The translations under genes and the position numbers were made by a program. Positions 1 to 64,000 of a stretch of DNA of 64,000 nt are shown one piece after another. The notes under the pieces were generated by a model. The model searched no databases and was not told the origin of the DNA. It saw only the letters and a program-made list of their open reading frames with translations. How positions within the stretch are numbered: position 1 is the first letter of the stretch; each line of letters opens with the position of its first letter. The stretch is taken from IMG/VR virus record IMGVR_UViG_3300002498_000057, one strand, 5' to 3'. The stretch is from a virus. Its lineage: Duplodnaviria; Heunggongvirae; Uroviricota; Caudoviricetes.

Positions 1-260
1 ACAGAATATATATAGTTTTGTAAAGGTATAGATCCTAAATATACATTTACTATTCAAAAATAGTAGTTGATTTATGGTTATAATAATGTATGGAACAAGT
101 TTAAAACTAGTCTTGAACCACCAACCGAAATTCTAGATAGAGACCGTTGGAGCCTGTAATGGAAGATACTTTTAGTAAATATGGTAAAATTTTTCAAATA
201 AAGGTAATATCTGCTATTTTACTAGATAAACACTTCTTTTTACAGATATATGAAATATTA

Positions 261-1550
261 AAATGACAATATTTTTAGTTATAGTCATTACAATGATTAT
301 ATAAATAGATAAAATAGTATTATCTATAGTATAATAATCTGCCTACACTATAGGTATTAGCAATAAAGCTTAAGACCATATAGAGTCAAGTTACTAAAAT
401 AGCTAATGTAGATGTATTTAGATAGGTTATAAAAAATACAAAATCTGAAGATTTACAATATATTAAAGATTAGACTACAGAATTTTGTAAAAATCAAAAC
501 TTATGATAGTCATTACAGATAATTGCATAGTTAGCAAAGACAGCAAAGCGGGAAAAATACGATCAAATAAGATTAATTATGCAAAATGCTTTACAAGCTG
601 GAACAGATACTAATATAGGTCATGATTGAAATAACTAGCTTTAGGAAAGATATAATGTGTCAGTTCGGTATTGTACTGATTTGCCCTGACCAATTTTAAC
701 TGATATTACTAATGGTGGGTTGGCTAAGGGTCAATTAGGCGTCATCGTCGGATGTGCTGCCGGCGGAAAATCATGAATGTTAGCAGCTATCGGTGCATGA
801 GCTATTAAACATGGTAAAAATGTAATACACTATACTATATAGTTAAGTAAGTATTAGGTTGGGATGAGATATGATTCGTTACTTACCAATGTTCCAAGTC
901 AAAAATTATTAATTAAAAAATAGGACAACAGATAGACACTTGAGTCTAAATAGCTTGGTAAATTACTAATACAATATTATCCACCAAGACGAGCTTCAGT
1001 TAATACGTTGGCGGCCCATATAAAGGTTTGTTAGCTTACTTGAGGCGTACCAGATTTAATTATAATGGATTATGGTGATAAATTAACTGCAACCGTAGTA
1101 AAAGGACAATAGGGTAGTTATTGGCAGGGAGCTGATATATATGATGCGTTAAAAGCGTTAGCAGGTGAAATAAATGTTCCAGTATGAACAGCATCACAAT
1201 CTAATAAATCAGGAAATTAGACATAGATTATATAGGGTCATCAAATAGCAGAATCATATGCAAAAGTAATGATAGCCGATTTTGTCATGAGTATATCAAG
1301 AAGAGCCTAGGACAGATAGTCTGGTATAGCTAGAATACATATTATAAAAAACAGAATGGGTCCTGACGGATTAACATATCAAGCAAAAACAAATATGGCG
1401 ACTGGGCATATGTAGATATTTGAAAATAATACAATATAGAGTTTAAATGTTAAAAAGGGGTCAGCAGTATCACAGAACCAAAGTATTCAAAGACAAATAA
1501 TTAAGAAAATGCAATAGCAAAAATTACAATAGCAGTATAGCTAGTAGTAA
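261..1550 (+). CDS. dnaB: DnaB-family replicative helicase (recoded; start unresolved, first in-frame ATG at 579)
   Basis: Frame open from TAA at 258 to TAA at 1548. Walker A GGKSWMLAAIG (W=TGA). TIELS aligns to DnaB SLEM with E=TAG. C-terminal ADFVMSISRR...IHIIKNRMGP matches the DnaB RecA fold. Many in-frame TAG and 7 TGA. Confidence 0.7.
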
Positions 1551-1619
1551 CAATTTTATTGAATAAAACTTAAATTCATATATTTATTATTATAAGATAT
1601 AAATATTAGGAGAACGATA

Positions 1620-2555
1620 ATGAAAAATAATAGTAAAACAATACGACAATATATATAGAAATTAAATTAGGCTAGAGATACAACCCGTGTTTGAGATAAA
1701 CGATAGGGATGACGCGGCGATAAGCTTGGAACACCATACGAAAGAAAACATAATAAATATTTTAATGATTCAACTTTCCAAGATAATATGAAAACAATAT
1801 AGTGGTAGGATTTTATGGACTATTGTAAAAAAGATCCAATTTGAAATACGATTATATCTGGCGGAGAAAAATCTAATATATCTGGTAAGCTTCTTAAATT
1901 TTGTTTAAAAAAGCAAAAATAGTGAATGAAGGACAACACAACAATGTCACCAGACGGAGATGCCGTTTATCCAATTCAACCAGTACCAGAATCAGCGTAG
2001 TTGTAGTTTAAGTAGTTTATTTCTGATTATATACAATAGCATCAATCAATCAACACTCCATTATAGCAAGGATTAGATTATTGATTATCAGATCCAATAT
2101 TAAATAAACTTCATTATAAATACTGGGATAAAAATTTATAGTGAAGTACTAAGCAACAATAGTTTTAGAATCTAAAAGAATAGTATAATAATTTAACTAT
2201 TAAATACAAATAGTAGAAAAATAGTTATATACAAAATGAAATAAACGCATAGATTATTAGAAGTAAATATAGATTAAATGAGTTACTTAATATCTAGACT
2301 AAATTGACATCAATAAAGGATGAATTATATTTACAATTATAGAGTTTAGTATAGATATATAACGCTTCTCATAGTCAGACTATAGATAAACATGAAAGAG
2401 ATTTTATTTATAATTAGTTATTATTAGAAAAACCTAAACACTTTTCAGCTAAATATTATAAGACTCTACCATGAGACCCAGATTTAATTGATGATGTTGA
2501 CTAGTTTGATCCTAATAAAGACTATGATGGATTTGACGATTAGTAGGAAGAATAA
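1620..2555 (+). CDS. hypothetical protein with poly-acidic C-terminus (recoded)
   Basis: SD AGGAG + ATG; single frame to TAA with ~25 in-frame TAG and several TGA; no domain recognised. Confidence 0.4.
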
Positions 2556-2572
2556 ACAATAAAGAAGATTAA

Positions 2573-3193
2573 ATGTTAAGTGTATATAAAGGTATTTATG
2601 TCGTATGTAAACGTGGTAAAAATTTTAAAAATTATTTTGTCCATGTAATTAAAAAACTTATATTTGGATTTTATATATGTAAAATTTATAAAAAAAATAC
2701 CCAATATTATAATATACATGCATTAAAATATTTATAGAAATTTGTTAACATATAGATTAGAAAAACTACACAGTTGTCTGAATAGACTTCATTCTTAATA
2801 TCAACTATTGATAGATTAAAGCATAGTAAAATTACAAATTTAGTTAGATGTTTATCAAAACAAGATAATTCTTATATAGGTTGTCCATAGTATGTATTGA
2901 ACTTTATAAATATTGGAATAGATAAATTTTATTATTTATAGCAGTAGTTAAATATTTCGCAAATAGGATATAATTCATTACAAAAAAAATGATTTTTTAT
3001 TCAAAATAATAAAGTGTATTAGTTAGTGCATTGACATAATTTTCCACTACAACTAATACGATAGAAATTGTTATAGTTATATAAACCAGTATAGATTCCA
3101 AATATAAAATAGATTCTATTAAATACAGAAAAACAAAAATTACAAAAAGTACGATAGATTTTAAAAAATAAAAAGGATAATAAGGTAAAATAA
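2573..3193 (+). CDS. GIY-YIG-like endonuclease candidate (recoded), immediately upstream of nrdJ
   Basis: N-terminal KGIYVVCKRGKNFKNYFVHV resembles a GIY-(10)-YIG motif; frame open to TAA at 3191 using TAG/TGA as sense. Confidence 0.35.
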
Positions 3194-3196
3194 TAT

Positions 3197-5752
3197 ATGA
3201 TAAAAATGTAGTAGTTTTCAAAATATATATGATAGACAAATTATAAAGGACCAAACGATAATACAATATAGGACACTTGAAGAAGAATTGCAAAAACAGC
3301 AGCGTCGTTATAGAAAAATAAATAGTATTGATAGGAATAGTTTTATAATATATTATATAATTTTTAGGTTGTTCCCGGCGGTAGGATAAATGCAAACATT
3401 GGTATATAGTAGCGAAAAAATGCTAGTTTGTTTAATTGTTATGTTTATAACCCTCAAGATTTTGGAATAAAAGATATTGATAGTATATAGACAATTTTTA
3501 ATACTTTAAAGCAATCAGCAAAGATATTGGCTAGTTAGGGCGGGTTGGGTATAAATTTAAGTTGAATACGGCCCAACGGTTCATTTATACATGGTACGGG
3601 GGTAAGAACACCCGGCGTATTAAAATTTATGTAGTTGTGAGATAAGACGAGCTAGATAATAACATTAGGTAGTAATAAAAAAATTAGTGATAAATATAAG
3701 CATATATAGAAAAAAAAGATACGTAAAGGCGCGCTTATGGGTATCTTAGATATATGTCATGCAGACATTAAATAGTTTATAGTTGTAAAACAGAATGCAA
3801 ATGTTCTAACGAAATTTAATTTATCCATTATGATTTCTGATAAATTTATGCATGCCGTATAGAGTAATTAGGATTGATAGTTAAAATTTCCAGATACATA
3901 GTTTTAGAAATATAAAGAGTAGTGAGACGGTAACTTTCAAAAGTGATAGGATAATGGATATCCATTTATAGTTTTTTAGGTAGTAAAAGCAAAATAGTTA
4001 TGAGATATGATAATGATGTCAACATATAATAGAAATTAGCCAGGTGTATTATTTCTTGATACAATAAATAGATTAAACCCGGTAAGTTATTGCGAATACA
4101 TATGTTGTACAAATCCCTGTTCATAGATTCCGCAACCAAGTAATATTTGTAATTTATCAAATGTTAATTTAGTTAAATTTTTTAGTAAATAGACCGGATA
4201 GTTTTAGTTTGAAAAATTTGGAAAATACGTCGCAGTAATTGTTAGATTTTTAGATAATATATTAGACATCTCAACTATTCCAATACAATAGTATAGATAG
4301 CTTATTGAGGATAAGCGACGAATTGGAATTGGTGTCTTAGGTTAGGGCTCTCTATTATATATGATGAAAATGAGATTTGGGTCAAAATAGGCAATATAGT
4401 TTATAGATAAGTTGTTTAAATATAAATCATAGATATAGCATTTGACCTCAGCAAACCTTGGAAAATAGAAGGGGTCATTTAAGGCATTTGATAAATAGAA
4501 ATATTTTAACACATAGTATTGAAAAAGTTTGTAGATTTCCTAGAATATTAAACGTGAGATATAGAATATCGGTTATATGAGAAATTCAGTACATTCAACT
4601 TCAGCTCCAACAGGTAATACTGGAATATATGCCGGTGTAGTTTCTGGAGGAATATAGCCAGTAATAGAAAAAAGCGGTATAAGATGAGTTGTTGTTAATC
4701 AATAGTAGAAATTTAACCTATAGAAATATATCTTTCCAGATCCTCATAGGGGATAGTGATTTGAAACAAATTAGTTAAAATTTATCAAATGCGGGAATGA
4801 ATAGATATTATAGGGATATGTTGAAGATATAAAATATCGTATTGATAAAAACCGAGGAATGACAAAATAGGTTGATGTATAGGATTATGGCTGGGCGTAT
4901 GTTAAAAAGCATTATGATGATGCTTATAATAATAATTATATTGTATAGGCAAAATAGCTATCTGTATAGTAGCATATAAATATGTTAAAAGCTTCTGCTA
5001 AATATATAAATCAAAATCAATCAAAAACTGTAAATTTACCGTCGAGTTATACATTCGAAGATTTTAAAAATGTTTTCTACGATGCTTGAAAGAGTAATAT
5101 AAAGGGTATTACTACTTACCGTGATGGAACGATGGCAGCTGTTATATAGAAAAAGAAGTAGCAATAGTAGTATAAAACATAGTTATAGAGATTATTTGTA
5201 TAGTCTAACGGTAATGTTATTAAAGACTATGTTAAATTACCAAAATAGTTTGATTCAAAAACATATGTAGTTAAAGATGTAAATAATAAGAAATGGTACA
5301 TTACTTTAGGGTTTGCAGACAAAGCTTGTAAAAAACCATTTGCTATGTTTATAAGAACTAATGCACACATCGCAACAGATATAGCTAATACTACAATATA
5401 GGCAATATAGGATTTACTTAGACGCAAAGGAATTTCATAGCATTTAATTATATAGCAGCAATAGAAATATTTAAAACAAAATAATCTTGATAAAATTGCG
5501 AGAGCCATTGGAATGGCAATGAGACATAATGTTAAGATGATGGATATTGTAAGTGTATTAGAATAGTATAATGATGGATTATCTACAATACTATTTCATA
5601 TACGTAAACTATTAACTAAATTTATACCAGATGGAACTGTTGTTAATATTAATAATAATAAAGTAAAATGCATAGAGTGTGGACAATAGACAATAGTATA
5701 TTAGTCCGGGTGTAAAAATTGTAAAAGTTGTGGATGAACTGCATGTGGATAA
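3197..5752 (+). CDS. nrdJ: class II (adenosylcobalamin-type) ribonucleotide reductase NrdJ (recoded)
   Basis: Single 852-codon frame. Motifs PGGRINANIG, GGLGINLS.IRPNG...GTGVRTPGVLKFM and active-site NPCSEIP. C-terminal KGITTYRDGT and a Cys4 ribbon CIECG...CKNCKSCGWTAC with W=TGA. More than 60 in-frame TAG. Confidence 0.8.
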
Positions 5753-5774
5753 AATAATAGGAGAATAAAATAAA

Positions 5775-6044
5775 ATGAAAATAACCAAACAAGATTTAAA
5801 ACAAATGATTAAATAGTAGTTAAATAATCAACAGACTACAAAAATTTATGTATAGAATTATCCATGATATATACGTAAAATAGATTCAACTCATATTGCT
5901 ATGTCAAATAAATAGAATAGTGATAATCCAGCAATATACCATGTAGGTCAATTAAAAGATAGATAGTACTATAATGATTTAGTATAGTGGCTTCATGGAG
6001 AAAAATCAATATAGAATAATAAATATTAGTAGGATATAAAATAA
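5775..6044 (+). CDS. hypothetical small protein (recoded)
   Basis: SD + ATG, TAA stop, several in-frame TAG. Confidence 0.3.
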
Positions 6045-6045
6045 A

Positions 6046-6660
6046 ATGGCAAAGAAAAAAAATGATTTAAAATAGATAAAGCAAGTAATATTATAGCAAT
6101 AGTAGTAGAGTACTTAGTAGCAAAAAGTATAGTAGTAGAAAGATAAATAGAATAATCCAGATAAAGGGTGCTTACTATTATAGCTATAGATTAAACATTG
6201 GGATAAATTATTAAAGGTATTTGTTCCAACTAAAGAAGATATATATAATGATAATACAGATGATTTTGGATATTCATAGACTCCACATATTACAATATTA
6301 TATGGATTCTTAGATAGATAGAATATTGATAAATAGAAATTACAATAGTATTTAATACCAACTGATAATATTAAACCTAAAATCACTGGTATGTCTTTAT
6401 TTGAATTATAGAAATATGATGTATTAAAATTTGATGTAGAATGTAAATAGTTAGTCAATATGAATAAGCAAATAGCTAAAAATTTCAAATATTCTAATGA
6501 CTATAGTAAATATATACCCCATATTACAATAGCATATTTATTACCTGGAACTGGAAAGAAATATGTTAAAAATATTAAATTATTTTATCCAAAAGTAAAA
6601 TAGTATATTTATAATTATAAAAATGTTGATACATAGTTAATTCCATTAAAACTAAAATAA
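6046..6660 (+). CDS. 2H phosphoesterase, LigT-like (2',3'-cyclic phosphodiesterase / 2'-5' RNA ligase family) with acidic N-terminal tail
   Basis: Two H-x-T-x motifs (TPHITILYG and IPHITIAYL) in one frame; N-terminal run of TAG (Glu) codons; TAA stop. Confidence 0.65.
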
Positions 6661-6936
6661 TTGTGATAACTTTAAATACAGTGTATATAATTAAATATAA
6701 AAATGACTAAAAAAGAGTATCAATTAAAAAAAAATGAAGCTATTATATTAAAAGATAAAACTATGTAGGTATTAATATCTTAGATGTACATTGATACCCT
6801 CGAATAGCGTATTAAATAGCTTGAGAATGATGGGTTAAGATTAGTTCATTTGCATTATCCAACAGTATTAGAGGGAACAATAACCACATCAGCATCAATT
6901 TGAGAATATGACGAATAAAATAAATTAATATAAATA

Positions 6937-7008
6937 GCCAATCTAGCTCAACGGTAGAGCACAAGTTTTGTAAACTTGAGGTTATGGGTTCGAAACCCTT
7001 GATTGGCT
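6937..7008 (+). tRNA. tRNA-Thr(UGU)
   Basis: Cloverleaf with acceptor GCCAATC/GATTGGC, anticodon stem CAAGT/ACTTG, loop TTTGTAA, T-loop TTCGAAA; CCA encoded. Confidence 0.85.
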
Positions 7009-7071
7009 CCAATAAATCTAATCTGAATGATAGATTTAAATAAAATACTAATCTAAGGAGAGTTAAAGATT

Positions 7072-8979
<1,908 letters not shown>

Positions 8980-9051: not shown

Positions 9052-9078
9052 GGCATCGAAAGGTGCCTATTTTTATTT
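9052..9078 (+). terminator. rho-independent terminator after dnaK
   Basis: GGCATC-GAAA-GGTGCC hairpin followed by TATTTTTATTT. Confidence 0.5.
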
Positions 9079-9116
9079 AAAATAATTGTGATAATGTTAG
9101 ACTAAATTGATATAAT
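9079..9116 (+). promoter_or_regulatory. conserved phage promoter motif copy 1 (AAAATAATTGTGATAA-N15-TATAAT)
   Basis: TTGTGA 9086-9091, 19-nt spacer, TATAAT 9111-9116 with TGn extended -10; SD GGGAG and ATG follow. Confidence 0.6.
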
Positions 9117-9137: not shown

Positions 9138-9422
9138 ATGGTTAGAATTACAGTAGAGTTATTACCGCATGGTAGTGAAAGTGCTAAAAGAAAAATTGCT
9201 AGTATGGATATTATCAATGATGGAACAGGTAATATTGATAATGGAAATTATAAATATAAAATATACAGTGTAGAGGCTTTAGGAATGTCAAAAGAACTTA
9301 GAAATCTTGATGTAATTAAATATAATGATGACTATAAAAATCACTTACGTAAAAAAGGTATTTGGAGCTTAATACATAATATATTTAAATCAATACCAGA
9401 TAATAGTTTAGATAGACCATAA
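9138..9422 (+). CDS. hypothetical protein
   Basis: ORF with own promoter and SD, no internal TAG/TGA, TAA stop. Confidence 0.5.
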   Translation: MVRITVELLPHGSESAKRKIASMDIINDGTGNIDNGNYKYKIYSVEALGMSKELRNLDVIKYNDDYKNHLRKKGIWSLIHNIFKSIPDNSLDRP

Positions 9423-9458
9423 AATAATTGTGATAAATCGCAAAATCATAATTATAAT
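9421..9458 (+). promoter_or_regulatory. conserved promoter motif copy 2
   Basis: TTGTGA 9428-9433, 19-nt spacer, TATAAT 9453-9458. Confidence 0.6.
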
Positions 9459-9491
9459 TAAACTATATTAAGAAAATATGAGGTTACTAAG

Positions 9492-10313
9492 ATGATTATT
9501 AAAACAGACAATTCGAATGTTATTGAAACTTTAAAGCCTTTTAGGGTTGCAGAGAAAGATATTTTTACTGATAAGTCTAAAGTAGACGGGTATAAAGCAA
9601 TTTGTTATGAACAGGATAATCGTCCAATTTGTATTGTATCAAATACCTATGGATTATTACAACACGATGAAGTAATACAGACCACTTTTGATGATTTAAA
9701 TAATATCGGGGTAAACTATGATGTTAAACAAGTTACATTAAATACTGGTTTAAAACGTAACACTATGGCAACTACTATAACACTGCCAGATCTTAAGATA
9801 AATGTTGATGGTAGTGATATTATCGGTACTATTTATATTCATAATGGAACAGACGGTATGACATCATTTACCCGTGAACTTGGATTTTATCGTAGCATTT
9901 GCCAAAATGGAATGAGAGTTCCACAACAATTACTTATATCTGAAAAGCTTAAGCATCGTAAGAATATTATAATGATGAACCTTGAAGAAGGAATTGAATC
10001 GATTACTAAGTATTTACCCAAGTTTGGAGAAATACTTGAAAAGGCACAACAAGTTAAATTAGACCAATTAAATTTAGATATTATGGCTAAAATGTTGCAT
10101 ATTGCTCCACGGGTATTTAATACTATTATATCTGGTGAATATGTTAATAAGTATAAAGATTTAATTGATGAACAAGCAGATATGAATACACTATGGGGAT
10201 TTTATCAAGTCATGACTAATTACCTTACACACTATGTCGCCAATAAATCTATTAGAACTGCTCAAGTTATGAATAGCCAGCTATATAGCTATATGCTTCA
10301 ACAAGTGGCATAA
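9492..10313 (+). CDS. hypothetical protein
   Basis: 273-aa ORF with SD GAGGT, stop-codon-free, TAA stop. Confidence 0.55.
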   Translation: MIIKTDNSNVIETLKPFRVAEKDIFTDKSKVDGYKAICYEQDNRPICIVSNTYGLLQHDEVIQTTFDDLNNIGVNYDVKQVTLNTGLKRNTMATTITLPDLKINVDGSDIIGTIYIHNGTDGMTSFTRELGFYRSICQNGMRVPQQLLISEKLKHRKNIIMMNLEEGIESITKYLPKFGEILEKAQQVKLDQLNLDIMAKMLHIAPRVFNTIISGEYVNKYKDLIDEQADMNTLWGFYQVMTNYLTHYVANKSIRTAQVMNSQLYSYMLQQVA

Positions 10314-12880: not shown

Positions 12881-12884
12881 TCGT

Positions 12885-53456: not shown

Positions 53457-53773
53457 TGAAAACAGAAACATTATATGTATGTGAACATTGTGGTCGTGCA
53501 AAAAATTCAGATATGAATTTAATGAAGATACATGAATTATATTGTCCACATAACTTAAGAGCATTGCCTCCAGAAACTGAATTAGAGGATTTTAACACCA
53601 CCAATGACGACGATTATATAAAATATCGAGAAACTGTTTCGATAGATGAATGGATTGAAGGAGGTTATTGTATTGACCCATATGATAATGAACTAGAAAT
53701 ATATTTATTAAATGGTAAACAAATAATAAATTGCTGTTTAACCGTAGAGATAAAATATATCCATTCAGTATAA
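53456..53773 (+). CDS. hypothetical zinc-ribbon protein
   Basis: CEHCGR...HELYCPHN. Confidence 0.4.
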   Translation: MKTETLYVCEHCGRAKNSDMNLMKIHELYCPHNLRALPPETELEDFNTTNDDDYIKYRETVSIDEWIEGGYCIDPYDNELEIYLLNGKQIINCCLTVEIKYIHSV

Positions 53774-53917
53774 GTGATATTGCATATTCAGTATCACAAT
53801 TGAAATCATTTGGCGAAGTAACAGTTGCAGTATATACAGATTTAAGTGATTAATAATTGTAATAATTTGTGTATAATAGAATACAACATAAAATACGTCT
53901 AATAGAGGATATGTAAA

Positions 53918-54331
53918 ATGGAATATGATTTAGGATCACTTATAGTACTCATTGCTATTGTTGTTACAATATGTATAGCCGGGTGTTATAGTTTAATGAC
54001 TATAAACAAGGGTAATGTTGATATTGAGCAGTATGAACTTGCAACATTTGTAAATGACACAAAAACTGAATCACACTATTATCTTTTTTATTGTTCTGTG
54101 CAAGAGAAAGGTTTTTATAAGTGCATGATTAAGCATGATGGTGGATATAAAATGGTAGAATTGGATCCAACCTACACAATTATATATGAAATAATAGATG
54201 GAACTGAGCCAAGAATAGTTGGGAAATATATTGAAAACGAATCTCGTTTTTCAACTAGACTTGCCAATACACGAGTGTATATTCCAACCAATGCAATATT
54301 AAACAAGTTTGAAATAGATGTTTCTAAATAA
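53918..54331 (+). CDS. hypothetical membrane-anchored protein (paralog of 54933)
   Basis: N-terminal TM; shared C-terminal YIPTNAILNKFEIDVSK. Confidence 0.45.
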   Translation: MEYDLGSLIVLIAIVVTICIAGCYSLMTINKGNVDIEQYELATFVNDTKTESHYYLFYCSVQEKGFYKCMIKHDGGYKMVELDPTYTIIYEIIDGTEPRIVGKYIENESRFSTRLANTRVYIPTNAILNKFEIDVSK

Positions 54332-54340
54332 GGAGTCAAA

Positions 54341-54698
54341 AATGAAAAAAATCATGTTAATTACAGTGTTTATATTGATAGTTATATCTATCTATTCACA
54401 AGTTATTATTAATCCAGGAGTTTACGAAGGAACTGGAAATTGGCAAGCAAGAACAAGAGAAATTCATAAGTGGGTAGTAAATTCTGATGGAGCAATATTA
54501 ATATATATTAACAATCAAAGAATAGGTGATGTATTGTTTTATAGAACAGAAATTTATAACGGTAATGTATTATTAACAACTTGTTTAAAAACTGGTGATT
54601 CCGTTGATTACTATTATTTAATAAGAACAGGATCTGGCATTGAATTACAATTTTATCATAATCCAAATTACAGATTGATATTAAGGAAAATACAGTAA
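54341..54698 (+). CDS. hypothetical secreted protein (signal peptide)
   Basis: MKKIMLITVFILIVISIYSQ; SD AAGGAG. Confidence 0.45.
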
Positions 54699-54931
54699 TG
54701 AAACAGACATTTGTAGTTGATACTGAAGAAAATGTATTAGAGTTTGATCGTCTATTGAGATCTATTATTTCGTTGATTTTTCCAGACTGGAAAGAATACA
54801 TAATGGAACTGGCATACGAAATATCGGCAGATGAATATATACGATGCCTAGAATGTGAAGAACGAATTTACTATTTAGACAAGTTTTGTAGGCATTGTGG
54901 GCATGAAGTAAATAAAAATAAGGAAGTATAA
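54698..54931 (+). CDS. hypothetical zinc-ribbon protein
   Basis: CLECEERIYYLDKFCRHCGHE. Confidence 0.4.
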   Translation: MKQTFVVDTEENVLEFDRLLRSIISLIFPDWKEYIMELAYEISADEYIRCLECEERIYYLDKFCRHCGHEVNKNKEV

Positions 54932-54932
54932 A

Positions 54933-55337
54933 ATGGGAATTCAACAAATTCTTTTAATCGTACTGAGCATTATCATCGTCGGCGTAGCAATCACTGTCGG
55001 TATCAGCATGTATAACAATCAAAACCTCTCAACTGAAACATATGAATTAATAGCTTTAAGTAATAATTCTGAAATATCTGGAAAGTTCTTTATATTGAGT
55101 GGCACACTAGGAACTGAAAACATATATAAGTGTATGATAAAGTATAATGGTGGTTATAAAATGGTTACATTAAATCCAGATTATGCGACGATATATGAAA
55201 TTAATGATGGTTCAGTGCCCAGAATTGAAGGTAGATATAGTGAATATGATAAACAGTTTTCTATAATTAAAGAGATAAAAGTATATATTCCTACTAATTC
55301 AATATTAAATAAATTTGAAATTGATGTTTCAAAGTAA
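54933..55337 (+). CDS. hypothetical membrane-anchored protein (paralog of 53918)
   Basis: N-terminal TM; C-terminal YIPTNSILNKFEIDVSK. Confidence 0.45.
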   Translation: MGIQQILLIVLSIIIVGVAITVGISMYNNQNLSTETYELIALSNNSEISGKFFILSGTLGTENIYKCMIKYNGGYKMVTLNPDYATIYEINDGSVPRIEGRYSEYDKQFSIIKEIKVYIPTNSILNKFEIDVSK

Positions 55338-55350
55338 TGGGTGATATAAA

Positions 55351-56181
55351 ATGAAACTAATAGTTTTAGGCGCAGGTTCAGCATTTTCAATGAAGCAGTA
55401 TCAATCTAACTTTTTATTAGATTTTGATGGATATAAAATGCTTTTTGATTGTGGTGGAGATATACGATGGGCATTAAAAGAACAAGGATTAAATGTTAAT
55501 GATATAGATGGAATAGCGATATCGCACTACCATAGCGACCATATCGGTGGACTTTAGTGGGTAGCTTTAAATAGGTTCTTTAATAAATCATTACCAAAAC
55601 CTGATTTATACATTTCTGAAAACTTAGTTGATGATTTATGGTCAGATTGTTTAAAGGGTGGTTTATCCACATATCAGGGTTGTGTATTACGATTGCATGA
55701 CTATTTTAATATTATAGCAATTCCAGAAAATGAAACAATATCGATAGTTAATAATGATGATGAATTTGTAGGTTGGGCTATGACTCCTGTTCAAACAGTT
55801 CATATTATGTCTGGATATAAAATCATGCCTTCGTATGGTATTATACTTGAGAGAAATCCACAAATACTGGGTTCAAAAATATATAAAATAAATAAATTAT
55901 ATATAACTTCAGATACACAATATTGTCCATATCAAATCAGAGATTTCTACGCAAGTGCGGATTTGATATTAGAAGATTGTGAAACTGCTGAATTTAAATC
56001 ACATGTTCATGCTCACTATGAAGATTTAAAAACATTAGAACCAGGATTCAAAAATAAGATGTGGTTATATCATTATAATGATCAACCTTGGGGCTGTGCA
56101 TCATTCGAAGCAATGCAACAAATGGCACAGCATGATGGATTTTTAGGGTTTTTAAGGCAAGGTCAAGTGCTAGAGATATAA
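55351..56181 (+). CDS. MBL-fold metallo-hydrolase, RNase Z-like, with a single in-frame TAG at 55555
   Basis: VLGAGSAFS...LFDCGGDI and SHYHSDHIGGL[TAG]WVAL; the frame joins track ORFs 55351 and 55693 into one 276-codon CDS. Confidence 0.65.
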
Positions 56182-56648: not shown

Positions 56649-57104
56649 ATGTGTCTATATATTAAAAGAAGGTTTTGGACAAAGGTTAAGAATACATTTG
56701 GTGTTTATGATACAACAAAAGATAGTTTATCAGTATATGTTGTTAGGCATGTAGACGAGGATAATGCAATTTCATCTCCATTTCACGGTGATTATATATG
56801 GGAAATTGGAAAAACCTTTGCAATAAAAAAAATTAAACATAAAATTTATAAATTGTGTGGAGTTGAATATATTACATTTGGATGGTTTCACAGTGTTAAA
56901 TTGTTTAAAGATGCAAATGATTTAAAGCTAATGTTATATGAGAACTCAAATTATCATTTGACAAAGGGTGCAAGATTGAAAATTTATAAAGCAGAAATTC
57001 CAGCAAGCACAATATTCTATAATGGATCATTTGATACAGAACGGGGATGTATGCCATCAATAGCATCAAAAAAATTAAAGCTTATTGGGGAAGTTAAATG
57101 TTAA
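56649..57104 (+). CDS. hypothetical protein
   Basis: ORF with SD GGAG. Confidence 0.4.
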   Translation: MCLYIKRRFWTKVKNTFGVYDTTKDSLSVYVVRHVDEDNAISSPFHGDYIWEIGKTFAIKKIKHKIYKLCGVEYITFGWFHSVKLFKDANDLKLMLYENSNYHLTKGARLKIYKAEIPASTIFYNGSFDTERGCMPSIASKKLKLIGEVKC

Positions 57105-57304
57105 GAGAATGTACATATTGTAATAAGACTTTTGATAGGGGTAAAGCTCGTGTTGAGGATGATTGCTATAGTGAAATTTGTGATAGTTGCTTTGAGTTAT
57201 TGACAGAGTATAACAATACACATCCAGTAACAGATAAAGAAAAAATTGAATATATGATAAATAAATTAGAGCTGGATAAAACTAAAAACTTAACATATTT
57301 ATAG
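57098..57304 (+). CDS. hypothetical small Cys-rich protein
   Basis: ORF overlapping the previous stop. Confidence 0.35.
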   Translation: MLRECTYCNKTFDRGKARVEDDCYSEICDSCFELLTEYNNTHPVTDKEKIEYMINKLELDKTKNLTYL

Positions 57305-57539
57305 AATGTCAATTATCAAATACAAAATAATTGTAAGTTCTATAATATAGCTGGATTATACTATTTTGTCCATAATCATGCAACAGCAAGATTTAATGAA
57401 ATGTCACCAATGAGAAAAATGATGCAATCATCTATTGTCTATGCTCCATTAACATTTGAATTTAAGAAGAATAGATGGCAATTGGATAATAGTGTTAAAT
57501 ATATATACAATATTAGTAATAATAAGTTTGAGGTTATGG

Positions 57540-58310
57540 ATGAACATAGGAATATATCCAACTAAAAGATGCAATTTAAAGTGTGCACATTGTATGCACG
57601 ATTGCTCACCAGAAAACAATGAAGAAATGACTATAGCCCAATTACATTATATGTATAAATTTATTCATTGGTGCCACACATAGGTTATTAAAGTAGATCA
57701 GATATGTATTAGTGGTGGTGAACCATTTCTATATACACATATTACTAGATTATTAACACGTATTAAAGATATTTCAACACAATTAAATATACCATTTTCA
57801 ATTTGTACTAATGGAACTATACCATATAGATATACAACTGGATTTTTGGAGTTAGACTTAGATTTTGTATGCAAAGTAGTTAGAATATCATCATCAATTT
57901 TTCACGATGCTCAACTTAAATAGAGAAAGTTAAGACAATATTTTTCAGAATTTACAAATATGTGTCAATAGCCAGTGATTCATAGGGTTGTAAGAATAAG
58001 TGATAAAGGTAGAGCAAAGGATTTAATTACTAATGATCCTAATAAATACTATGATGGTGGATTAATATGTTTCAATAAAAACCATATTGGTATTAATTTT
58101 AAGCCAAAGTTTATTTCATTTTGCTCTGAAGATGATAGTGAAATAGATTCATACAAATATTTATACTATTAGGATTTAAGTTCATTGCATATGGATGAAA
58201 TAACTTCATTTAGAACAATTATAACTAAAGCATATGAATTTCATGGAAGAAAGATAGCAGGATTGTGTGGTAATAAATGTAAACATTATACAATAAAAAA
58301 TTCAAAATAA
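57540..58310 (+). CDS. radical SAM protein (recoded, 4 in-frame TAG)
   Basis: CNLKCAHCMHD (CxxxCxxC), ISGGEPF; SD GAGGTTATGG. Confidence 0.65.
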
Positions 58311-58326
58311 GAAACATTGGAAACAA

Positions 58327-59103
58327 ATGATTAAAAAACAAAACGCTGGAATATATGATCAATTCTACACCAAGCCATAGGTAGCTAAAGCTTTAATTAA
58401 AAATATAGATATATCAAAGTATGAGTTAATAATATAGCCATCTGCTGGTAATGGTAGCTTTAGTAAGCAAATAAAGAATTGTATGGCTTATGATATAGAC
58501 CCAAAAGATTAGTCAATAATTAAGGGTGATTATCTATAGATGCAGATCATAACTAATCCATAGAAAACTTTAGTTATTGGTAACCCCCCCTTTGGTAGGC
58601 AATCCTCTCTAGCATTTAAGTTTATAAAAAAGTCCATGCTAATTGCCGATACGGTGGCATTTATATTACCAAAATCCTTCAGAAAGGTATCATATATAGA
58701 TAGAGTACCATTAACTCACTAGTGTGTCTTATAGATTGATCTGGATGATAATTCATTCATTGTAGATAGTAACTAGTACTCTGTTCCATGTGTCTTTCAA
58801 ATATGGGAAAGATGTACTATAAACAGAATAAAACATAGTAACTATCATACAAATGATTTTTAGTTCTGTAGTAAGAAATAGGCGCAATTATCAATTAGAC
58901 GTGTTGGGTGGTATGCTGGAATTGTGTATAGTGATATAGATAAATCATAGAGCTCATTTTATTTTGTGAAGTAGAAGAATAAAGATATTAATTATATCAA
59001 ATAGAAGTTATAGAGCATTGATTATAATGATGTGAAGGATAATTCAGCAGGAATACGCACCATATCAAAAAGATAGATAATAATGAAATACGTGGGAGAA
59101 TAA
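58327..59103 (+). CDS. N6-adenine DNA methyltransferase (recoded)
   Basis: FYTKP.VAKALI (motif I region) and VIGNPPFGRQSS (motif IV NPPF); about 14 in-frame TAG. Confidence 0.65.
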
Positions 59104-59341
59104 TATGAGAAAAAACACATTGTGTTCATTCGTACATCCAGATATCGTAAACTAGGATAAATATCCATATCCCTTTAAGCATGGTGATCAGTTTATTTAT
59201 CTTGGTGATATACGCGGAATGAGGGGGCATGGAATATTTGTTCATAGAAAAACTAATCTAGTTTATTCTGGATATTACACTTAGAACTTTATAAAGGCTT
59301 TGAAATAGATGTTTCAAACTAAAGATATCTGAGAAATTATT

Positions 59342-59806
59342 ATGAATAAAATATTAAAGCTTATATCAAATTTGCTTTTTGAAATAAAGTGGGTTTTTCT
59401 CAGACCTTTTTGTTTAATATATGATATACCAAAAATAATCAAATTCAACAAAAAAATTGATTTACTCCCAGATCAAGAATCTTGGCATATAACTGAATCG
59501 CACTATGGATTTAAATGTAAAGTTGGTGACATTGTTGAATATGATTATCAAATAGGTTATTATGATCATAAAAGATATAAGCCCGGATATTGTATTGTAT
59601 TGGATGTCACTAAAAAGATGATGAAGAAAGGCATTGATTGTGCTTTGCCGGGTTTACATGGATTTTATGGTAAATGGTATGGAGAAGACATTATGAATGA
59701 AAAGTCTTATGGCAAAATACATATGCTATGCGATACATTTTATCAACTTAAAGTTATTGGTAATGTTAATGATAACCCAGAACTTATTAAATATATTGCA
59801 GACTAA
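59342..59806 (+). CDS. hypothetical protein
   Basis: ORF. Confidence 0.4.
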   Translation: MNKILKLISNLLFEIKWVFLRPFCLIYDIPKIIKFNKKIDLLPDQESWHITESHYGFKCKVGDIVEYDYQIGYYDHKRYKPGYCIVLDVTKKMMKKGIDCALPGLHGFYGKWYGEDIMNEKSYGKIHMLCDTFYQLKVIGNVNDNPELIKYIAD

Positions 59807-59910: not shown

Positions 59911-59948
59911 AAATAATTGTGATAAATAACTATAATCTAGATATAATT
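59911..59948 (+). promoter_or_regulatory. conserved promoter motif copy 13
   Basis: TTGTGA 59918-59923, 19-nt spacer, TATAAT 59943-59948. Confidence 0.6.
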
Positions 59949-59967: not shown

Positions 59968-60153
59968 ATGAAAAAATTATCAATAGGTAATTGGTTCGTA
60001 ATTATAGTTGCAGTAATTATTGCATTTATTTGTGTTTATGGCATATTCTTTAATTCAAATGTCATTGATTTCAAAAAGCATAATACAGTAGATACAATTC
60101 AGGTCATAACTGATTATGCCGAACCTGTAATTGATACAACCGTGGTTAAGTAA
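59968..60153 (+). CDS. hypothetical small membrane protein
   Basis: SD AAGGAGGT. Confidence 0.4.
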   Translation: MKKLSIGNWFVIIVAVIIAFICVYGIFFNSNVIDFKKHNTVDTIQVITDYAEPVIDTTVVK

Positions 60154-60211
60154 TACTAAAGTGGTCTGTAGGTAAATTATAACTATATCTATAGACCACC
60201 TATTTTTGCTC

Positions 60212-60249
60212 AAAATAATTGTGATAAATACCAAAAATCTAATTATAAT
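60212..60249 (+). promoter_or_regulatory. conserved promoter motif copy 14
   Basis: TTGTGA 60219-60224, 19-nt spacer, TATAAT 60244-60249. Confidence 0.6.
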
Positions 60250-60280
60250 ATAATTATATTTAAGAAAAAGAGGTTATACC

Positions 60281-60763
60281 ATGAAACAATTAAAAGATCA
60301 ATTTGTTACCGTAACATATGCAAGGGCTGTAAGTCAACCATCTGGTAGTGTTAGGGGTAAAAAACAAACATATAAAGCATTGGTGTTAAATGTAACTGAT
60401 ACTACAATATCGGTACGTATGATAAAGTCTCAATGTTATGTTGATATATTATATAAAAAATGCGGTTATAGTGTAACCCACCCAGATTTTATTAAATTTA
60501 TGAAAGATTGTCGTAATGCATTAAATATTGGATATACTATACAAGAAACTGGTGTAGTATCGATTCCATTAAATATTACCTTTTCAATAGAATCGTTTAA
60601 AAAAATGAATCCTATTATCATTAATAAAAATACATTATCTAAAGATGAATTATTAATACTTGAAGATCAAATTCAAATAATGCACAAAGATTTAGCACAT
60701 TCTTGTTGGTTTGATAATGATAACGATTGTATGAGATGGTACAGAAAATATATTCCAAAATAA
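60281..60763 (+). CDS. hypothetical protein
   Basis: SD AGAGGT; stop lies inside the next promoter motif. Confidence 0.45.
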   Translation: MKQLKDQFVTVTYARAVSQPSGSVRGKKQTYKALVLNVTDTTISVRMIKSQCYVDILYKKCGYSVTHPDFIKFMKDCRNALNIGYTIQETGVVSIPLNITFSIESFKKMNPIIINKNTLSKDELLILEDQIQIMHKDLAHSCWFDNDNDCMRWYRKYIPK

Positions 60764-60794
60764 TTGTGATAGTTTGAAGTCGTATAAATATAAT
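60757..60794 (+). promoter_or_regulatory. conserved promoter motif copy 15
   Basis: TTGTGA 60764-60769, 19-nt spacer, TATAAT 60789-60794. Confidence 0.6.
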
Positions 60795-60820
60795 TAATTT
60801 ATATTTAAAAGGAGACGACA

Positions 60821-61891
60821 ATGAAATTATCAGAATCTAATATAACTATACTTAATGATCATATTACTAATGGTAATATAAGAGTTGCAAAGCATCCAGA
60901 TTATGAATTATACTTATATAAATATACTCAGCAATGTGTATTTAATGGTATATGGGATGATGTTACATTAATGTGTAGAGGTTTAGTATTAGATAATGAA
61001 TATAATATCATTGCAAATTGTATTCCAAAGTTTTTTAATTATGAAGAATTAAATCAAGTAAGAGTTCCAAATATTAATTTAAATCAGGCTTTTACAATTA
61101 CACGAAAAGACGATGGAAGTTTAATTCAAATATTCATGTATAAAAATAATTTAATAACAACTTCATCTGGTGGATTTTGTAATGACTATACAAAAAAAGC
61201 TGAAGAATTACTTAGTACAAAATACAAACATATTATTCCAATAATTACAGATTCACCAGATTTAAATTTTATATTTGAAATGATTTCTCCATTAACTAAA
61301 GTGGTTATAAACTATGAGGATACTGAAGAATTAAGACTAATAACTATTAGAGATATGGATGGACTTGAATTTTCTAGGTTTATTGAATGGTGTAAAACTC
61401 AAGGATTTGATTATGTCCAGGAAGAGAAATTTTACTCTATAGTCCAGTTATTAGTAGAAAAAGTATCAGAGTTTAAAAATATCGAAGGTTATGTTATAAA
61501 GTTTGAAGATGGGCAACGTGTAAAGTTTAAGTATGATGAATATTTTACATTACATAAAACAATAGCTCATGTAAGTAAAAAGTTTGTATGGGAAGCATTA
61601 GCTAATAATATAGATTTAAACTTAGAAAATATTCCAGATGAAACATTTAAACAGATTAAACAATGGAAAAAAGAACTTGAAGATGAATTTAATTTTATTG
61701 AAGATGCAGTTGTAAAGGCTAATAGGCGGGTGTCTATTGCATCAATAAATGGAGTCTTCAATAGAAAGCAACAAGCAGAATTTATCTTAAAAAATTATAA
61801 AGAATACTCTCAAATGCTATTTGCTATGTTAGACGATAGAGATATTGAGCCTATGATATGGAAAAAAATTAAACCAAGTAATGAGGACTAA
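60821..61891 (+). CDS. Rnl1-family ATP-dependent RNA ligase (T4 RnlA-like)
   Basis: Motif I ITRKDDGSLIQIF (compare T4 KEDGSL), motif IV EGYVIKFEDG, motif V RVKFKYDEY; 356 aa; SD AAGGAGA. Confidence 0.7.
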   Translation: MKLSESNITILNDHITNGNIRVAKHPDYELYLYKYTQQCVFNGIWDDVTLMCRGLVLDNEYNIIANCIPKFFNYEELNQVRVPNINLNQAFTITRKDDGSLIQIFMYKNNLITTSSGGFCNDYTKKAEELLSTKYKHIIPIITDSPDLNFIFEMISPLTKVVINYEDTEELRLITIRDMDGLEFSRFIEWCKTQGFDYVQEEKFYSIVQLLVEKVSEFKNIEGYVIKFEDGQRVKFKYDEYFTLHKTIAHVSKKFVWEALANNIDLNLENIPDETFKQIKQWKKELEDEFNFIEDAVVKANRRVSIASINGVFNRKQQAEFILKNYKEYSQMLFAMLDDRDIEPMIWKKIKPSNED

Positions 61892-62281
61892 TGGTAAATA
61901 TACAATCTGAATTAGTATATTAGGTTAGATAGACGTCTGATTTAATAATGATAAAAGTATAGAATTGTCATGTAAATTGTTTTAAAAATAAAAACATTTT
62001 AACATTTTAGTGGTACCGTGATGGTGTGTAGAATGTGTATAAATATATTTATATTGCATATGATATATAGTTAAAATTAACAAAAACAAATATAGAAAAT
62101 TTAATTGTTAGTTATCAGGATTCATACAATAAATTAAATTTAAATAAATTATATATGAATAATGTTATTATTAATTTTTATAATTACAAATTAAAGGATA
62201 GTGGAGTATTATCATTTTCAATTCAATTTGATAATGATATTAGTAAAGTTATAACTATCAAACTAAAATAAGGAAGATAAA

Positions 62282-62756: not shown

Positions 62757-62794
62757 ATAAAAATTGTGATAATTTGCACAACACAACATATAAT
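62757..62794 (+). promoter_or_regulatory. conserved promoter motif copy 16
   Basis: TTGTGA 62764-62769, 19-nt spacer, TATAAT 62789-62794. Confidence 0.55.
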
Positions 62795-62821
62795 AAAATT
62801 AATAAACAAAAAGAGGTTATT

Positions 62822-63118
62822 ATGAAATTCAATTATTTATGGTTCGCTATTCCAAAAACTGGAAAACAGGTTAGAGTAACTATTGCGTATGCTAATAATC
62901 AATATGCATTTGCCGTTCAAAGCCCAAATGACATGTTTGTTAAATATCTTGGACGTGAATTAGCTATTAGAAAGTATAATACTGGTAAAGTATATTATAC
63001 TCAAGAATCTACATGGAAAAGAATTAAAGAATCGTTTTTACAATTACTTATTTCCGATAAGTGTCTTCATAATGATATTCCAGACTTCTTAAAAGCCGCG
63101 TTTCTACTAACCAGGTAA
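62822..63118 (+). CDS. hypothetical protein
   Basis: SD AAGAGGT + ATG at 62822 (the track ORF starts upstream at 62774). Confidence 0.45.
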   Translation: MKFNYLWFAIPKTGKQVRVTIAYANNQYAFAVQSPNDMFVKYLGRELAIRKYNTGKVYYTQESTWKRIKESFLQLLISDKCLHNDIPDFLKAAFLLTR

Positions 63119-63124
63119 ATAATT

Positions 63125-63517
63125 ATGCTATATCAACAAAATATTAAAGACCAATTAAGACAGAAAAAAATTACTATAGCTATAATTAAGCAGTATATTC
63201 AATCTAAATTAAATACTAACGATAGGTGGATGTACACAGCTTTAATAAGATTATATAGTAAACAAACTCTTGAAGAACAAACTTTTGATGAATCATTAGA
63301 AATAAATAATCAAGGGTTTAGTAGTGCTGATGCAGAATTATTATCTAGTTATGCAAAACAATATGAAAGTAAAAAGTTTTTAACACCAAAGCAAAAACAT
63401 TGGTGTAGAACTAAAATACTTAAGTATTGGGAGCAGATTTGGAATATATCAGATCAAGAAAGAATGATAGATTTAATTGAAAAGGAGAATAATGATGATC
63501 AAATGCTCTGTGTGTAA
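63125..63517 (+). CDS. hypothetical protein
   Basis: ORF. Confidence 0.4.
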   Translation: MLYQQNIKDQLRQKKITIAIIKQYIQSKLNTNDRWMYTALIRLYSKQTLEEQTFDESLEINNQGFSSADAELLSSYAKQYESKKFLTPKQKHWCRTKILKYWEQIWNISDQERMIDLIEKENNDDQMLCV

Positions 63518-63680
63518 TCAACCTATTGAAAGGCTACCATATGATTAGATTAAAAACAAATCTAATTATTGTGATAACTGTGCAACTCTTGAACATATTG
63601 CAAATAAATTTAAGTGTATAGATAATATAGATAATAACATTATTGGCAAATTTTCAATATTTAAATCAAATGAAGACAAT

Positions 63681-63917
63681 ATGTTACTTATATGTGGATG
63701 GAATTTAAAAAACGAATTCTATTGGGATTATATACCAGTTCAAGAATATTTACTATCATATCAATTGCATGGAGAAAAAATGAAAGTTCAAGATAAAAAA
63801 AGAAAAATTAAACGAATAGTATATATTACAAAGTGTCCAGATTGTAATAAAGAAAACTGTAAGCTTAGACAATTATGTGGTAGTATTCCAGATGAATGCC
63901 CACTAGACACTATTTAG
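63681..63917 (+). CDS. hypothetical small Cys-rich protein
   Basis: ORF. Confidence 0.3.
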   Translation: MLLICGWNLKNEFYWDYIPVQEYLLSYQLHGEKMKVQDKKRKIKRIVYITKCPDCNKENCKLRQLCGSIPDECPLDTI

Positions 63918-64000
63918 GAATAATTTGTGAAATATTTAAATTCAATAGAGATACCACTACTATAGTTTATAAAATTATATGGTATATAGTTATATGAAAA

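Follow-up and report, generated by a model that had tools for sequence, protein, structure and literature searches.

How can one bacteriophage carry, side by side, genes filled with in-frame TAG and TGA codons and genes that do not contain a single one? This question is raised by a stretch of 64,000 nucleotides from the tailed-phage record IMGVR_UViG_3300002498_000057 (hereafter the window, taken at its full length), in which an initial annotation had distinguished TAG-rich genes from genes free of TAG and TGA and had seen in them a built-in timing switch. Our answer has two parts. Sequence comparisons indicate that in this phage TAG encodes glutamate and TGA tryptophan, with TAA as the single stop codon, and its genes comprise a class that is strictly devoid of both reassigned codons (the clean genes) next to a broad spectrum of genes that use them. 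We consider it likely that this partition works as a translational switch between two sets of genes, in which the clean genes would be translated before the change of code and the recoded genes after it.

The window is part of a 256,585-bp metagenomic contig (ENA ERZ27315036, k141_100919), in which it was placed through identical proteins at approximately positions 153,075-217,074, in reverse orientation, and its source is a jumbo phage. Its G+C content is 27.6%, composition and codon usage are uniform along its length, and all convincing genes lie on the + strand, as do all the features listed below. The gene set that we used consists of 116 TAA-delimited, non-overlapping open reading frames (ORFs) on this strand, which make up 82% of the window. 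About 10 kb beyond the window end could also be recovered (locus L003), and this segment supplies the region of the glutamyl-tRNA synthetase (GluRS). The window was compared with related phage contigs in which TAG also stands for glutamate, among them L005, L007, L008, L011 and L013. The closest of these, L008 (JGI 3300020048, contig Ga0207193_1000017, 262,090 bp), comes from another sample and was examined over its positions 1-21380.

The need for an alternative code is already apparent from the coding density. Indeed, + strand ORFs (ATG start, at least 80 amino acids) cover 29% of the window in the standard code, 58% when TAG is taken as a sense codon and 73% when TAA is the sole stop. The identity of the two reassigned codons was sought in an alignment of the ribonucleotide reductase (RNR) gene (3197-5752; 851 codons, with 74 TAG and 14 TGA) with 83-90 homologs. 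The TGA columns hold tryptophan in 12 of 12 conserved cases. The TAG columns contain 38-40% glutamate against 4-7% glutamine, and among the 24 conserved ones glutamate is the conserved residue in 18 and glutamine in none. The TAG positions of DnaK likewise align mainly with glutamates of a solved Hsp70 structure. A codon-by-codon comparison with the RNR gene of L005 gives the same picture: TAG stands opposite GAA or GAG 18 times (plus 3 times in the reverse orientation), opposite TAG 16 times and opposite CAA or CAG 4 times, and 10 of the 14 TGA codons of the window gene face TGG. In L005 and L007, which are TAG-recoded and in which TGA is a genuine stop, the TAG columns also point to glutamate. 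Moreover, RNR, DnaB, DnaK, DnaJ, EF-Ts and TnpB all reach their full length once the reassigned codons are read through. It is from these alignment columns and codon pairs that we conclude that TAG is glutamate, TGA tryptophan and TAA the sole stop; the initial annotation had not stated, at this point, the choice of glutamate over glutamine. Genetic code 15, in which TAG is glutamine, was rejected, as the TAG columns hold 40% glutamate against 4% glutamine and no conserved glutamine column. Genetic code 4 fits for TGA as tryptophan, but TAG is not a stop here, as the gene set holds it 506 times in frame.

This assignment has a consequence for the public databases. The nearest database homologs of the RNR contain 6-9% glutamine and little glutamate, and their source genes hold in-frame TAG codons that annotation pipelines translated as glutamine. 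Proteins of this phage clade (e.g., P0001-P0004, P0009, P0011 and P0083, and the gene calls on L001, L003 and L004) carry false glutamines at TAG-encoded glutamates or are broken at TAG or TGA, so that annotations and alignments built on them are systematically wrong. The relatives also give an idea of how the code was assembled. In L008, 21 of 24 genes stop at TAA and lack in-frame TGA; an internal TGA is seen in two of the recoded genes (5834 and 7353). In the more distant L005 and L007, about half of the genes end in TGA. This suggests that TGA dropped out of use before it became tryptophan in the window phage, and the code may have been built stepwise, with TAG as glutamate throughout the clade, disuse of TGA in the closest relative, and then TGA as tryptophan in the window phage.

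Once genes are delimited by TAA, the reassigned codons are far from evenly spread among them, as the initial annotation had claimed. The share of TAG among glutamate codons is strongly heterogeneous (chi2 = 598, 85 df, p = 3e-78), and 34 genes with at least 5 glutamate codons have no TAG at all, where 1.1 would be expected. The clean class comprises 51 of the 116 ORFs, in which none of the 405 glutamate codons is TAG (GAA 343, GAG 62) and none of the 78 tryptophan codons is TGA (all 78 are TGG). Ro60 (0 TAG of 28 glutamate codons), RtcB (0/28) and Rnl1 (0/31) are examples. The 65 other ORFs (56%) contain reassigned stops, and they can be divided into a recoded class of 30 ORFs, in which TAG makes up 75% of the glutamate codons and TGA 67% of the tryptophan codons, and an intermediate class of 35. 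The RNR (74/87), DnaB (31/41) and the ORF at 40384-41691 (33/39) are typical of the recoded class. The use of TGA follows that of TAG from gene to gene (Spearman 0.79, p = 2e-6; co-occurrence odds ratio 14, p = 6.5e-7). The notion of two populations is nevertheless only half right. The zero class is real, but the remaining genes range from 7 to 100% TAG and are still heterogeneous among themselves (chi2 = 243, 53 df), with DnaK and EF-Ts at 45%. The distribution is that of a zero class plus a broad spectrum, rather than of two sharp modes. In recoded genes the first TAG or TGA comes at a median position of codon 11, in keeping with the earlier statement that such genes need a suppressor tRNA; TAG is not enriched within the first 30 codons (odds ratio 1.36, p = 0.17).

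The functions assigned from Pfam matches agree with those first proposed. Recoded or graded genes include DnaB, RNR, a 2H-phosphoesterase/Acb1-like protein, DnaK, DnaJ, NUDIX, EF-Ts, RNase H-like, methyltransferase-like and radical SAM proteins, and an IS607-like resolvase with its TnpB. The clean or nearly clean genes include DUF932, Ro60/TROVE, an RlaP nucleotidyltransferase, Rnl2, Sir2, SPFH, RtcB, an Apyc1-like MBL protein and Rnl1, and many small ORFs are clean as well. Three isolated codons deserve a comment. The single TGA of Rnl2 (44178) is a true sense codon, which is TGG in a relative, and so is the single TAG of the MBL gene (55555), which is TAG at the matching codon of a relative. 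The single TAG of the nucleoside-hydrolase-like gene also exists, at 34932 and not at 34935 as first given. The HNH gene (42027-42596), in contrast, had been listed among the stop-free genes and is not fully clean, since a TGA (42528) and a TAG (42585) fall within its last 23 codons.

Several features of the clean genes speak to how this state is kept. Outside glutamate and tryptophan, their codon usage is essentially identical to that of recoded genes. From the base frequencies at four-fold sites or in intergenic DNA, TAG would neutrally be expected to make up 38-45% of glutamate codons and TGA 68-87% of tryptophan codons, and the complete absence of both therefore means that the clean state is maintained by selection. 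On the other side, the TAG share of the recoded class exceeds the neutral expectation, and the TGA share pooled over all non-clean genes (51%) remains below it, as expected for the younger of the two reassignments. All 51 clean genes also end in TAA, against a neutral expectation of about 76% from base frequencies (p ~9e-7), and because none of them stops at TAG or TGA they are valid in both codes, which bears out the earlier remark that the stop-free set is readable in the standard code. Finally, the class of a gene was unchanged in 15 of 15 ortholog families shared with related TAG=Glu phages, at 30-77% identity. DnaB, RNR and three others are recoded on both sides. RlaP (0/21 TAG among glutamate codons vs 0/35 and 0/36), Rnl2 (0/25 vs 0/29), the NAD-dependent DNA ligase LigA (0/32 vs 0/21) and a cREC_REC protein are clean on both sides, and the MBL gene is nearly clean in both phages (1/14 vs 2/14), with a TAG at a shared codon. 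These patterns argue that the clean genes are selected to read alike in both codes and were not imported.

The clean genes are further distinguished by what lies in front of them. A motif made of AAAATAATTGTGATAA, a spacer of ~16 nt and TATAAT occurs in 17 copies in the window (19 with the extension), all full copies being on the + strand; it had been reported before with 16 copies. In its promoter form, TTGTGATAA-N-TATAAT, each copy lies 39-68 nt ahead of an ATG or a tRNA. The copy near the amber suppressor gene tRNA(CUA), with TTGTGA, 18 nt and TATAAT, matches the sigma-70 consensus at 10 of 12 positions. The correlation between gene class and motif positions, which had been proposed as a check, gave a positive result: of the 16 copies close to a gene, 14 stand before a clean one (Fisher p = 0.0026, calculated on the automatic count of 13/16, since the 14th comes from gene 62822-63118, which was re-called after the test). 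In L008 the motif is found 6 times, ahead of five clean genes and one tRNA (p = 0.006).

Along the window, these promoters stand at 9086-9116 (clean gene 9138-9422, just after the hairpin at 9052-9067), 9428-9458 (the DUF932 gene, 9492-10313), 19416-19446 (19482-19751), 22882-22912 (22950-23422, together with a series of tRNA genes) and 29884-29914, where the clean gene 29943-30152 is followed by tRNA-His/Ser and by a packed operon mixing clean and TAG-bearing small genes. They then occur at 39088-39118 (39150-39827), 41754-41784 (the clean RNA-repair block from 41815 onward, with HNH, the RlaP nucleotidyltransferase and Rnl2), 47384-47414 (47447-48796, including SPFH), 48900-48930 (48962-51548, including RtcB), 59917-59947 (59968-60153), 60219-60249 (60281-60763), 60764-60794 (Rnl1, 60821-61891) and 62764-62794 (62822-63118). 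The two exceptions both lead on to tRNA genes: the copy at 6661-6691 precedes ORF 6703-6918 (4 TAG) and tRNA-Thr at 6937, and the copy at 13142-13172 precedes the recoded ORF 13181-13651, with the opal suppressor gene tRNA(UCA) about 900 nt downstream. Two further copies precede tRNA(CUA) itself. The nearer one (17285-17314) lies directly 5' of the gene, 41 nt upstream, and its near-identical twin (17108-17137) is found 177 nt farther upstream. The stretch downstream of the twin (17146-17283) has no tRNA or Rfam match and folds in no unusual way (z-score -1.8), and a small RNA at this place was rejected. A T4-type late promoter (TATAAATA) ahead of the recoded genes was also rejected, with 65 copies against 46 expected and no positional tie to gene starts, and short AT-rich motifs do occur 5' of some recoded genes, but 3 copies of CCATATATATTA and 5 of GATATTTATA do not suffice for a call. 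In such AT-rich DNA, a generic sigma-70 scan stays near background (183 vs 161), as do predicted terminators (4 vs 4.3), which are useful only at the hairpins 9052-9067 and 10334-10373.

The decoding of the recoded genes relies on tRNAs that the phage carries. ARAGORN finds 28 tRNA genes in the window, which include tRNA(CUA) (17326-17400; Rfam tRNA 51.5 bits), which would read TAG as glutamate, and tRNA(UCA) (14060-14134; 43 bits), which would read TGA as tryptophan. The 26 ordinary tRNAs (6937-36399) serve 18 amino acids, and within the window the two that are missing are exactly glutamate and tryptophan. tRNA(CUA) has a Glu-like D-arm (U11-A24, U13.G22), a 4-nt variable loop as in the E. 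coli tRNA-Glu (a comparison sequence at 100% identity to annotated genes) and an A31.C39 mismatch. Its derivation from the tRNA-Gln of this very phage was rejected, as there is no similarity. tRNA(UCA) has the same scaffold with a discriminator G73, and except for this base it looks like a paralogue of tRNA(CUA). The two suppressors of the window and the tRNA(CUA) of L011 (12521-12595) all share a G1.U72 wobble, the 4-nt variable loop and the A31.C39 mismatch, which leaves a 4-bp anticodon stem. The window also encodes a tmRNA (18128-18484; Rfam RF00023, 94.7 bits), and a tmRNA is retained near the GluRS block in two relatives (L011 16810-17155, L013 16824-17180). The tag frame ends with TAA in the window and in L011, and with TGA in L013, a phage that has kept TGA as a stop. 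After the switch, this tmRNA might free ribosomes that have run past the TAG and TGA stops of host messages.

The other partner of the amber suppressor would be the phage GluRS. This enzyme of 448 amino acids is encoded 238 nt beyond the window end (window coordinates 64238-65584) and contains neither TAG nor TGA. Over seven phages, the window phage and six relatives, 0 of 188 glutamate codons of this gene are TAG. The protein matches NCBIfam TIGR00464 (gltX_bact) with 348.3 bits, above the equivalog cutoff of 289.95, but only over residues 2-369, and its alignments to every solved GluRS in the PDB end near residue 311-323. About 30 clusters of the same clade (P0121-P0151; 42-58% identity over the full length) lack a match to the Pfam domain Anticodon_2 (PF19269), which is present in almost all bacterial-type GluRS matches (P0152 onward). 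The AlphaFold model (pLDDT 90.8) resembles a full-length bacterial GluRS, the best match being the non-discriminating enzyme of T. maritima (TM 0.75). As judged from these comparisons, we take the phage protein to be a GluRS of bacterial type with a diverged anticodon-binding domain, and it presumably charges tRNA(CUA) with glutamate. In L011, tRNA(CUA) lies 1.1 kb downstream of GluRS. Single-protein patterns retrieved no relatives of this GluRS in IMG/VR. Right after the GluRS gene comes a 113-codon ORF (window coordinates 65595-65936; L003 12471-12812), in which 24 codons (21%) are TAG, out of 33 glutamate codons in total. Its ortholog in L008 has TAG at 14 of 28 glutamate codons. This is a hyper-acidic protein that exists only under the new code.

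Taken together, these elements can be arranged into the switch that we favor. The clean genes, which lack TAG and TGA and end in TAA, would read alike in the presumed standard code of the host and in the phage code. Their sigma-70-like promoters would be usable by the host RNA polymerase on entry, and the same promoter class would drive the tRNA(CUA) gene. GluRS belongs to this pre-switch set and would charge tRNA(CUA) with glutamate. Until then, translation of the post-switch messages would break off at a median of about 11 codons, and the build-up of the suppressor tRNAs and of GluRS would make these messages translatable. This second set would supply replication, nucleotide metabolism, chaperones, EF-Ts and the insertion sequence (IS) element, with, in the relatives, the virion genes. 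The timing switch proposed at first is thus supported by the promoter class, the clean GluRS and the conserved ortholog classes, its expression timing being deduced from these features. The idea that it is inverted relative to crAss-like and Lak phages, where late structural genes are recoded, is not supported. None of the structural genes of this phage lies in the window, and in its relatives the T4-type baseplate gene, the genes of tape-measure-like proteins (1184-1878 aa) and neighboring structural genes have 20-60% of their glutamate codons as TAG, on contigs where GluRS, Rnl2-like and Ro60-like genes are clean. With recoded structural genes and a clean GluRS in the relatives, the scheme would therefore match the published one, except that its boundary lies earlier and replication genes already fall on the recoded side.

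A number of observations do not fit this switch well. Calling the clean genes early rests on promoter shape and logic, and the standard code of the host is deduced from the avoidance pattern. The promoter motif was not found within ~300 nt upstream of the GluRS gene of the window phage, and tRNA(UCA) is not preceded by a separate promoter. In tight operons (30.4-33.4 kb; 60821/61891) the two classes of gene alternate, so the gate would act on translation and not on transcription, and many promoter-headed transcripts would carry both. The split of functions is imperfect, since LigA is clean and the Acb1-like anti-defence candidate is recoded (TAG at 21 of 24 glutamate codons), and the heterogeneity of the non-clean genes is not explained by a simple two-state timer. 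The virion genes of this phage could not be found with the baseplate of a relative as a query against the protein collection and the JGI metagenomes, which returned only more relatives and no match from the source contig or its sample. Lastly, the scheme would require termination at TAA to survive when RF1 (UAG) and RF2 (UGA) are outcompeted.

These difficulties call for a comparison with other explanations. The clean genes could have been imported recently from standard-code hosts or phages and not yet have acquired TAG or TGA, the recoded genes being the old core. Their often mobile accessory functions (Ro60, RtcB, Rnl1/2, Sir2, SPFH, HNH) would agree with such a mosaic ancestry, and the gradient among the other genes, with DnaK and EF-Ts midway, could mirror the time since acquisition. 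Yet codon usage for the other amino acids does not distinguish the classes, TAA closes every clean gene, and the clean genes share the phage's own promoter. The clean state is also kept in distant orthologs and in GluRS over seven lineages, at a divergence where neutral drift predicts TAG at about 40-57% of glutamate codons, and we regard recent import as highly improbable. If suppression were instead inefficient in its competition with release factors, the most expressed genes might shun TAG and TGA regardless of timing. The graded TAG share of the non-clean genes and the strong consensus promoters at clean genes are what this explanation would predict, but the avoidance within the clean set is absolute and not graded. 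Virion structural genes, which are normally the most expressed, are recoded in the relatives, and TAG is not disfavored in the recoded class, where its share lies above neutrality. An effect of expression level is for these reasons quite improbable.

A technical origin has to be considered too, since the contig is metagenomic and small ORFs are hard to call at 27% GC. A chimeric assembly of two differently coded phages, or wrong gene models, would however not switch classes from one gene to the next where stop and start codons overlap, nor leave composition and codon usage uniform. In addition, two JGI contigs (sample 3300001567; 3.5 and 9.6 kb) agree with the window at 99.97-100% identity, a closeness that makes them uninformative on strain polymorphism at TAG/GAA sites, and other samples yielded more than 8 related contigs with the same partition, so that an artefact can practically be dismissed. 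Beyond the timer, TAG and TGA could also be sense codons private to the phage, which would make glutamate and tryptophan decoding independent of host tRNAs after the switch. This idea, which we hold to be unlikely, stems from the tRNAs for 18 amino acids, from suppressors that replace tRNA-Glu(UUC) and tRNA-Trp(CCA) and from a GluRS presumably retargeted to CUA. In core genes TAG accounts for 75-90% of the glutamate codons, where mutation bias would give 38-45%. Were it true, the phage could disable the host tRNA-Glu or tRNA-Trp or survive host anticodon nucleases, the messages of the host and of competitors would be misread through their TAG and TGA stops, with the phage tmRNA clearing the stalled ribosomes, and this would be the first natural code with a single stop codon in a bacterial virus.

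The preferred switch has close precedents. Borges et al. (bioRxiv 10.1101/2021.08.26.457843; proteomic validation in PMC9523058) described recoded gut phages (Lak, crAss-like, Jade, Agate, Garnet and others) with reassigned in-frame stops in 26-71% of their genes, and proposed early translation in the standard code followed by a switch. In their Jade phages, the TrpRS and RF1 genes that form the code-change machinery are compatible with the standard code. The window phage resembles them in its partial recoding (56% of genes), its suppressor tRNAs and a code-change machinery, here GluRS, that is readable in the standard code. It differs from them in that TAG is glutamate, TGA is added as tryptophan, TAA is left as the sole stop and the GluRS forms a dedicated clade. 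Where the phage code differs from that of the host, the same study found only TAG reassigned to glutamine and TGA taken as tryptophan, with one reassigned codon per phage (bioRxiv 10.1101/2021.08.26.457843). The recoding of those phages is also biased to late and lysis genes, whereas here it already covers replication, nucleotide metabolism and chaperones, and TAG is the majority glutamate codon of recoded genes. Mgcod (bioRxiv 10.1101/2022.06.29.495998) revealed crAss-like phages with blocks of alternative and standard code. Our phage likewise combines alternative-code and standard-readable sections in one genome, although its blocks are weak, with 43 runs over 116 genes, classes alternate within operons and the clean genes can be read in either code. 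In their study of huge phages, Al-Shayeb et al. 2020 (PMC7162821) noted a reassigned UAG in some of the genomes and presented a tree of phage GluRS. They did not specify which amino acid UAG encodes, did not connect it with GluRS, and concluded that none of their genomes uses a one-stop code. A jumbo genome, many tRNAs, a tmRNA, EF-Ts and GluRS are common to those phages and ours.

Our literature search found phage reassignments only of TAG to glutamine and of TGA to tryptophan (glycine in code-25 hosts), none of TAG to glutamate, and no paper on a phage with TAG as glutamate, on the dedicated GluRS clade or on TGA as tryptophan added to leave one stop. The phage code and its GluRS thus appear to be undescribed. 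In the phage stop-codon recoding described to date, host synthetases largely do the charging, and TAG as glutamate with a dedicated synthetase would be a third assignment, on which the window phage has stacked a second reassignment, so that only TAA terminates. The sharp partition (0/405 vs 75%), tied to a defined promoter, makes the model of a host code used first directly testable, and a natural GluRS/tRNA(CUA) pair with a one-stop code is of interest for the engineering of the genetic code.

Stop-to-glutamate codes exist in eukaryotic nuclei, namely code 30 of peritrichs and code 31 of Blastocrithidia (TGA as tryptophan, TAG and TAA as glutamate). The latter shares with our phage the meaning of TAG and TGA, and the tRNA-Trp of Blastocrithidia reportedly has a shortened anticodon stem, of which the 4-bp stem of the phage suppressors is reminiscent. 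The organisms are nonetheless unrelated, termination there depends on an eRF1 machinery and TAA is a dedicated stop here, so the shared assignments are at most a convergence.

The arrangement of the two classes along the window remains to be described. The genes form 43 runs of the same class where 58 are expected (z = -2.9), a significant but weak clustering, and classes alternate within packed operons with overlapping stop and start codons. The islands of TAG-rich genes first outlined therefore exist as a tendency, with borders that are only approximate. They are not purely recoded, since clean genes lie inside them at 9138-10313, 14944-15270, 19482-19751 and 39150-39827, and recoded genes are not confined to them, with outliers at 26449, 31063, 31989, 32355, 45340, 56182 and 61891. 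A first recoded block (159-8979) holds the DnaB-like helicase, two ORFs of unknown function, the class II-like RNR (74 TAG, 14 TGA), the 2H-phosphoesterase/Acb1-like gene and DnaK (23 TAG). It is followed by a clean cassette within the recoded island (9138-10313), with a 94-aa ORF and DUF932, each having its own promoter, bracketed by hairpins on both sides: a terminator-like one after DnaK (9052-9067) and a 17-bp palindrome after DUF932 (10334-10373). Recoding resumes at 10398-14930 (DnaJ, NUDIX, DUF7831, a zinc-finger ORF and others), and the clean genes of 20963-23422 comprise Ro60/TROVE and three small ORFs.

Farther on, a graded-to-recoded block (33430-39087) contains the nucleoside-hydrolase-like gene (1 TAG), a zinc-finger ORF (17 TAG), EF-Ts (10/22) and an RNase H-like gene, and at 40143-41691 TAG makes up 8 of 9 and 33 of 39 glutamate codons of two genes. 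The mostly clean block at 41815-51548 (HNH, RlaP nucleotidyltransferase, Rnl2 with its one TGA, Sir2, SPFH, RtcB and small ORFs) has exceptions at 45340-45603, 46966-47379 and 48817-48990. Clean small ORFs with the Apyc1-like MBL gene (52365-56181) are followed by a graded-to-recoded block (57098-59806) with the radical SAM (4/14) and methyltransferase-like (15/18) genes, then by clean genes up to Rnl1 (59968-61891) and by a lone recoded gene (61891-62271; TAG 6/8), whose start overlaps the stop of Rnl1.

Three smaller observations complete this picture. The IS607-like pair at 27803-29623, made of a serine resolvase (14 TAG, 1 TGA) and TnpB (12 TAG, 4 TGA), is written in the phage code (26 TAG and 5 TGA in all) and can only be expressed inside such a recoded system; a second recoded TnpB lies just past the window (66467-67756; L003 13343-14632). 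As for the wider diversity of such phages, an INPHARED search gave no close relative, the best DnaB match being 41% (Microcystis phage Mel-JY01), and nucleotide matches of 64-68% identity were confined to DnaK or RNR. Finally, a TAG- and TGA-dense stretch of ~400 nt outside the gene set (13651-14060, from ORF 13181-13651 to tRNA(UCA)) could be what is left of a gene or else an ORF that lacks an ATG start, and a partial tRNA-like match between tRNA-Leu genes (25929-25985; 33.2 bits to positions 10-63 of the Rfam tRNA model) could represent a tRNA copy in decay.

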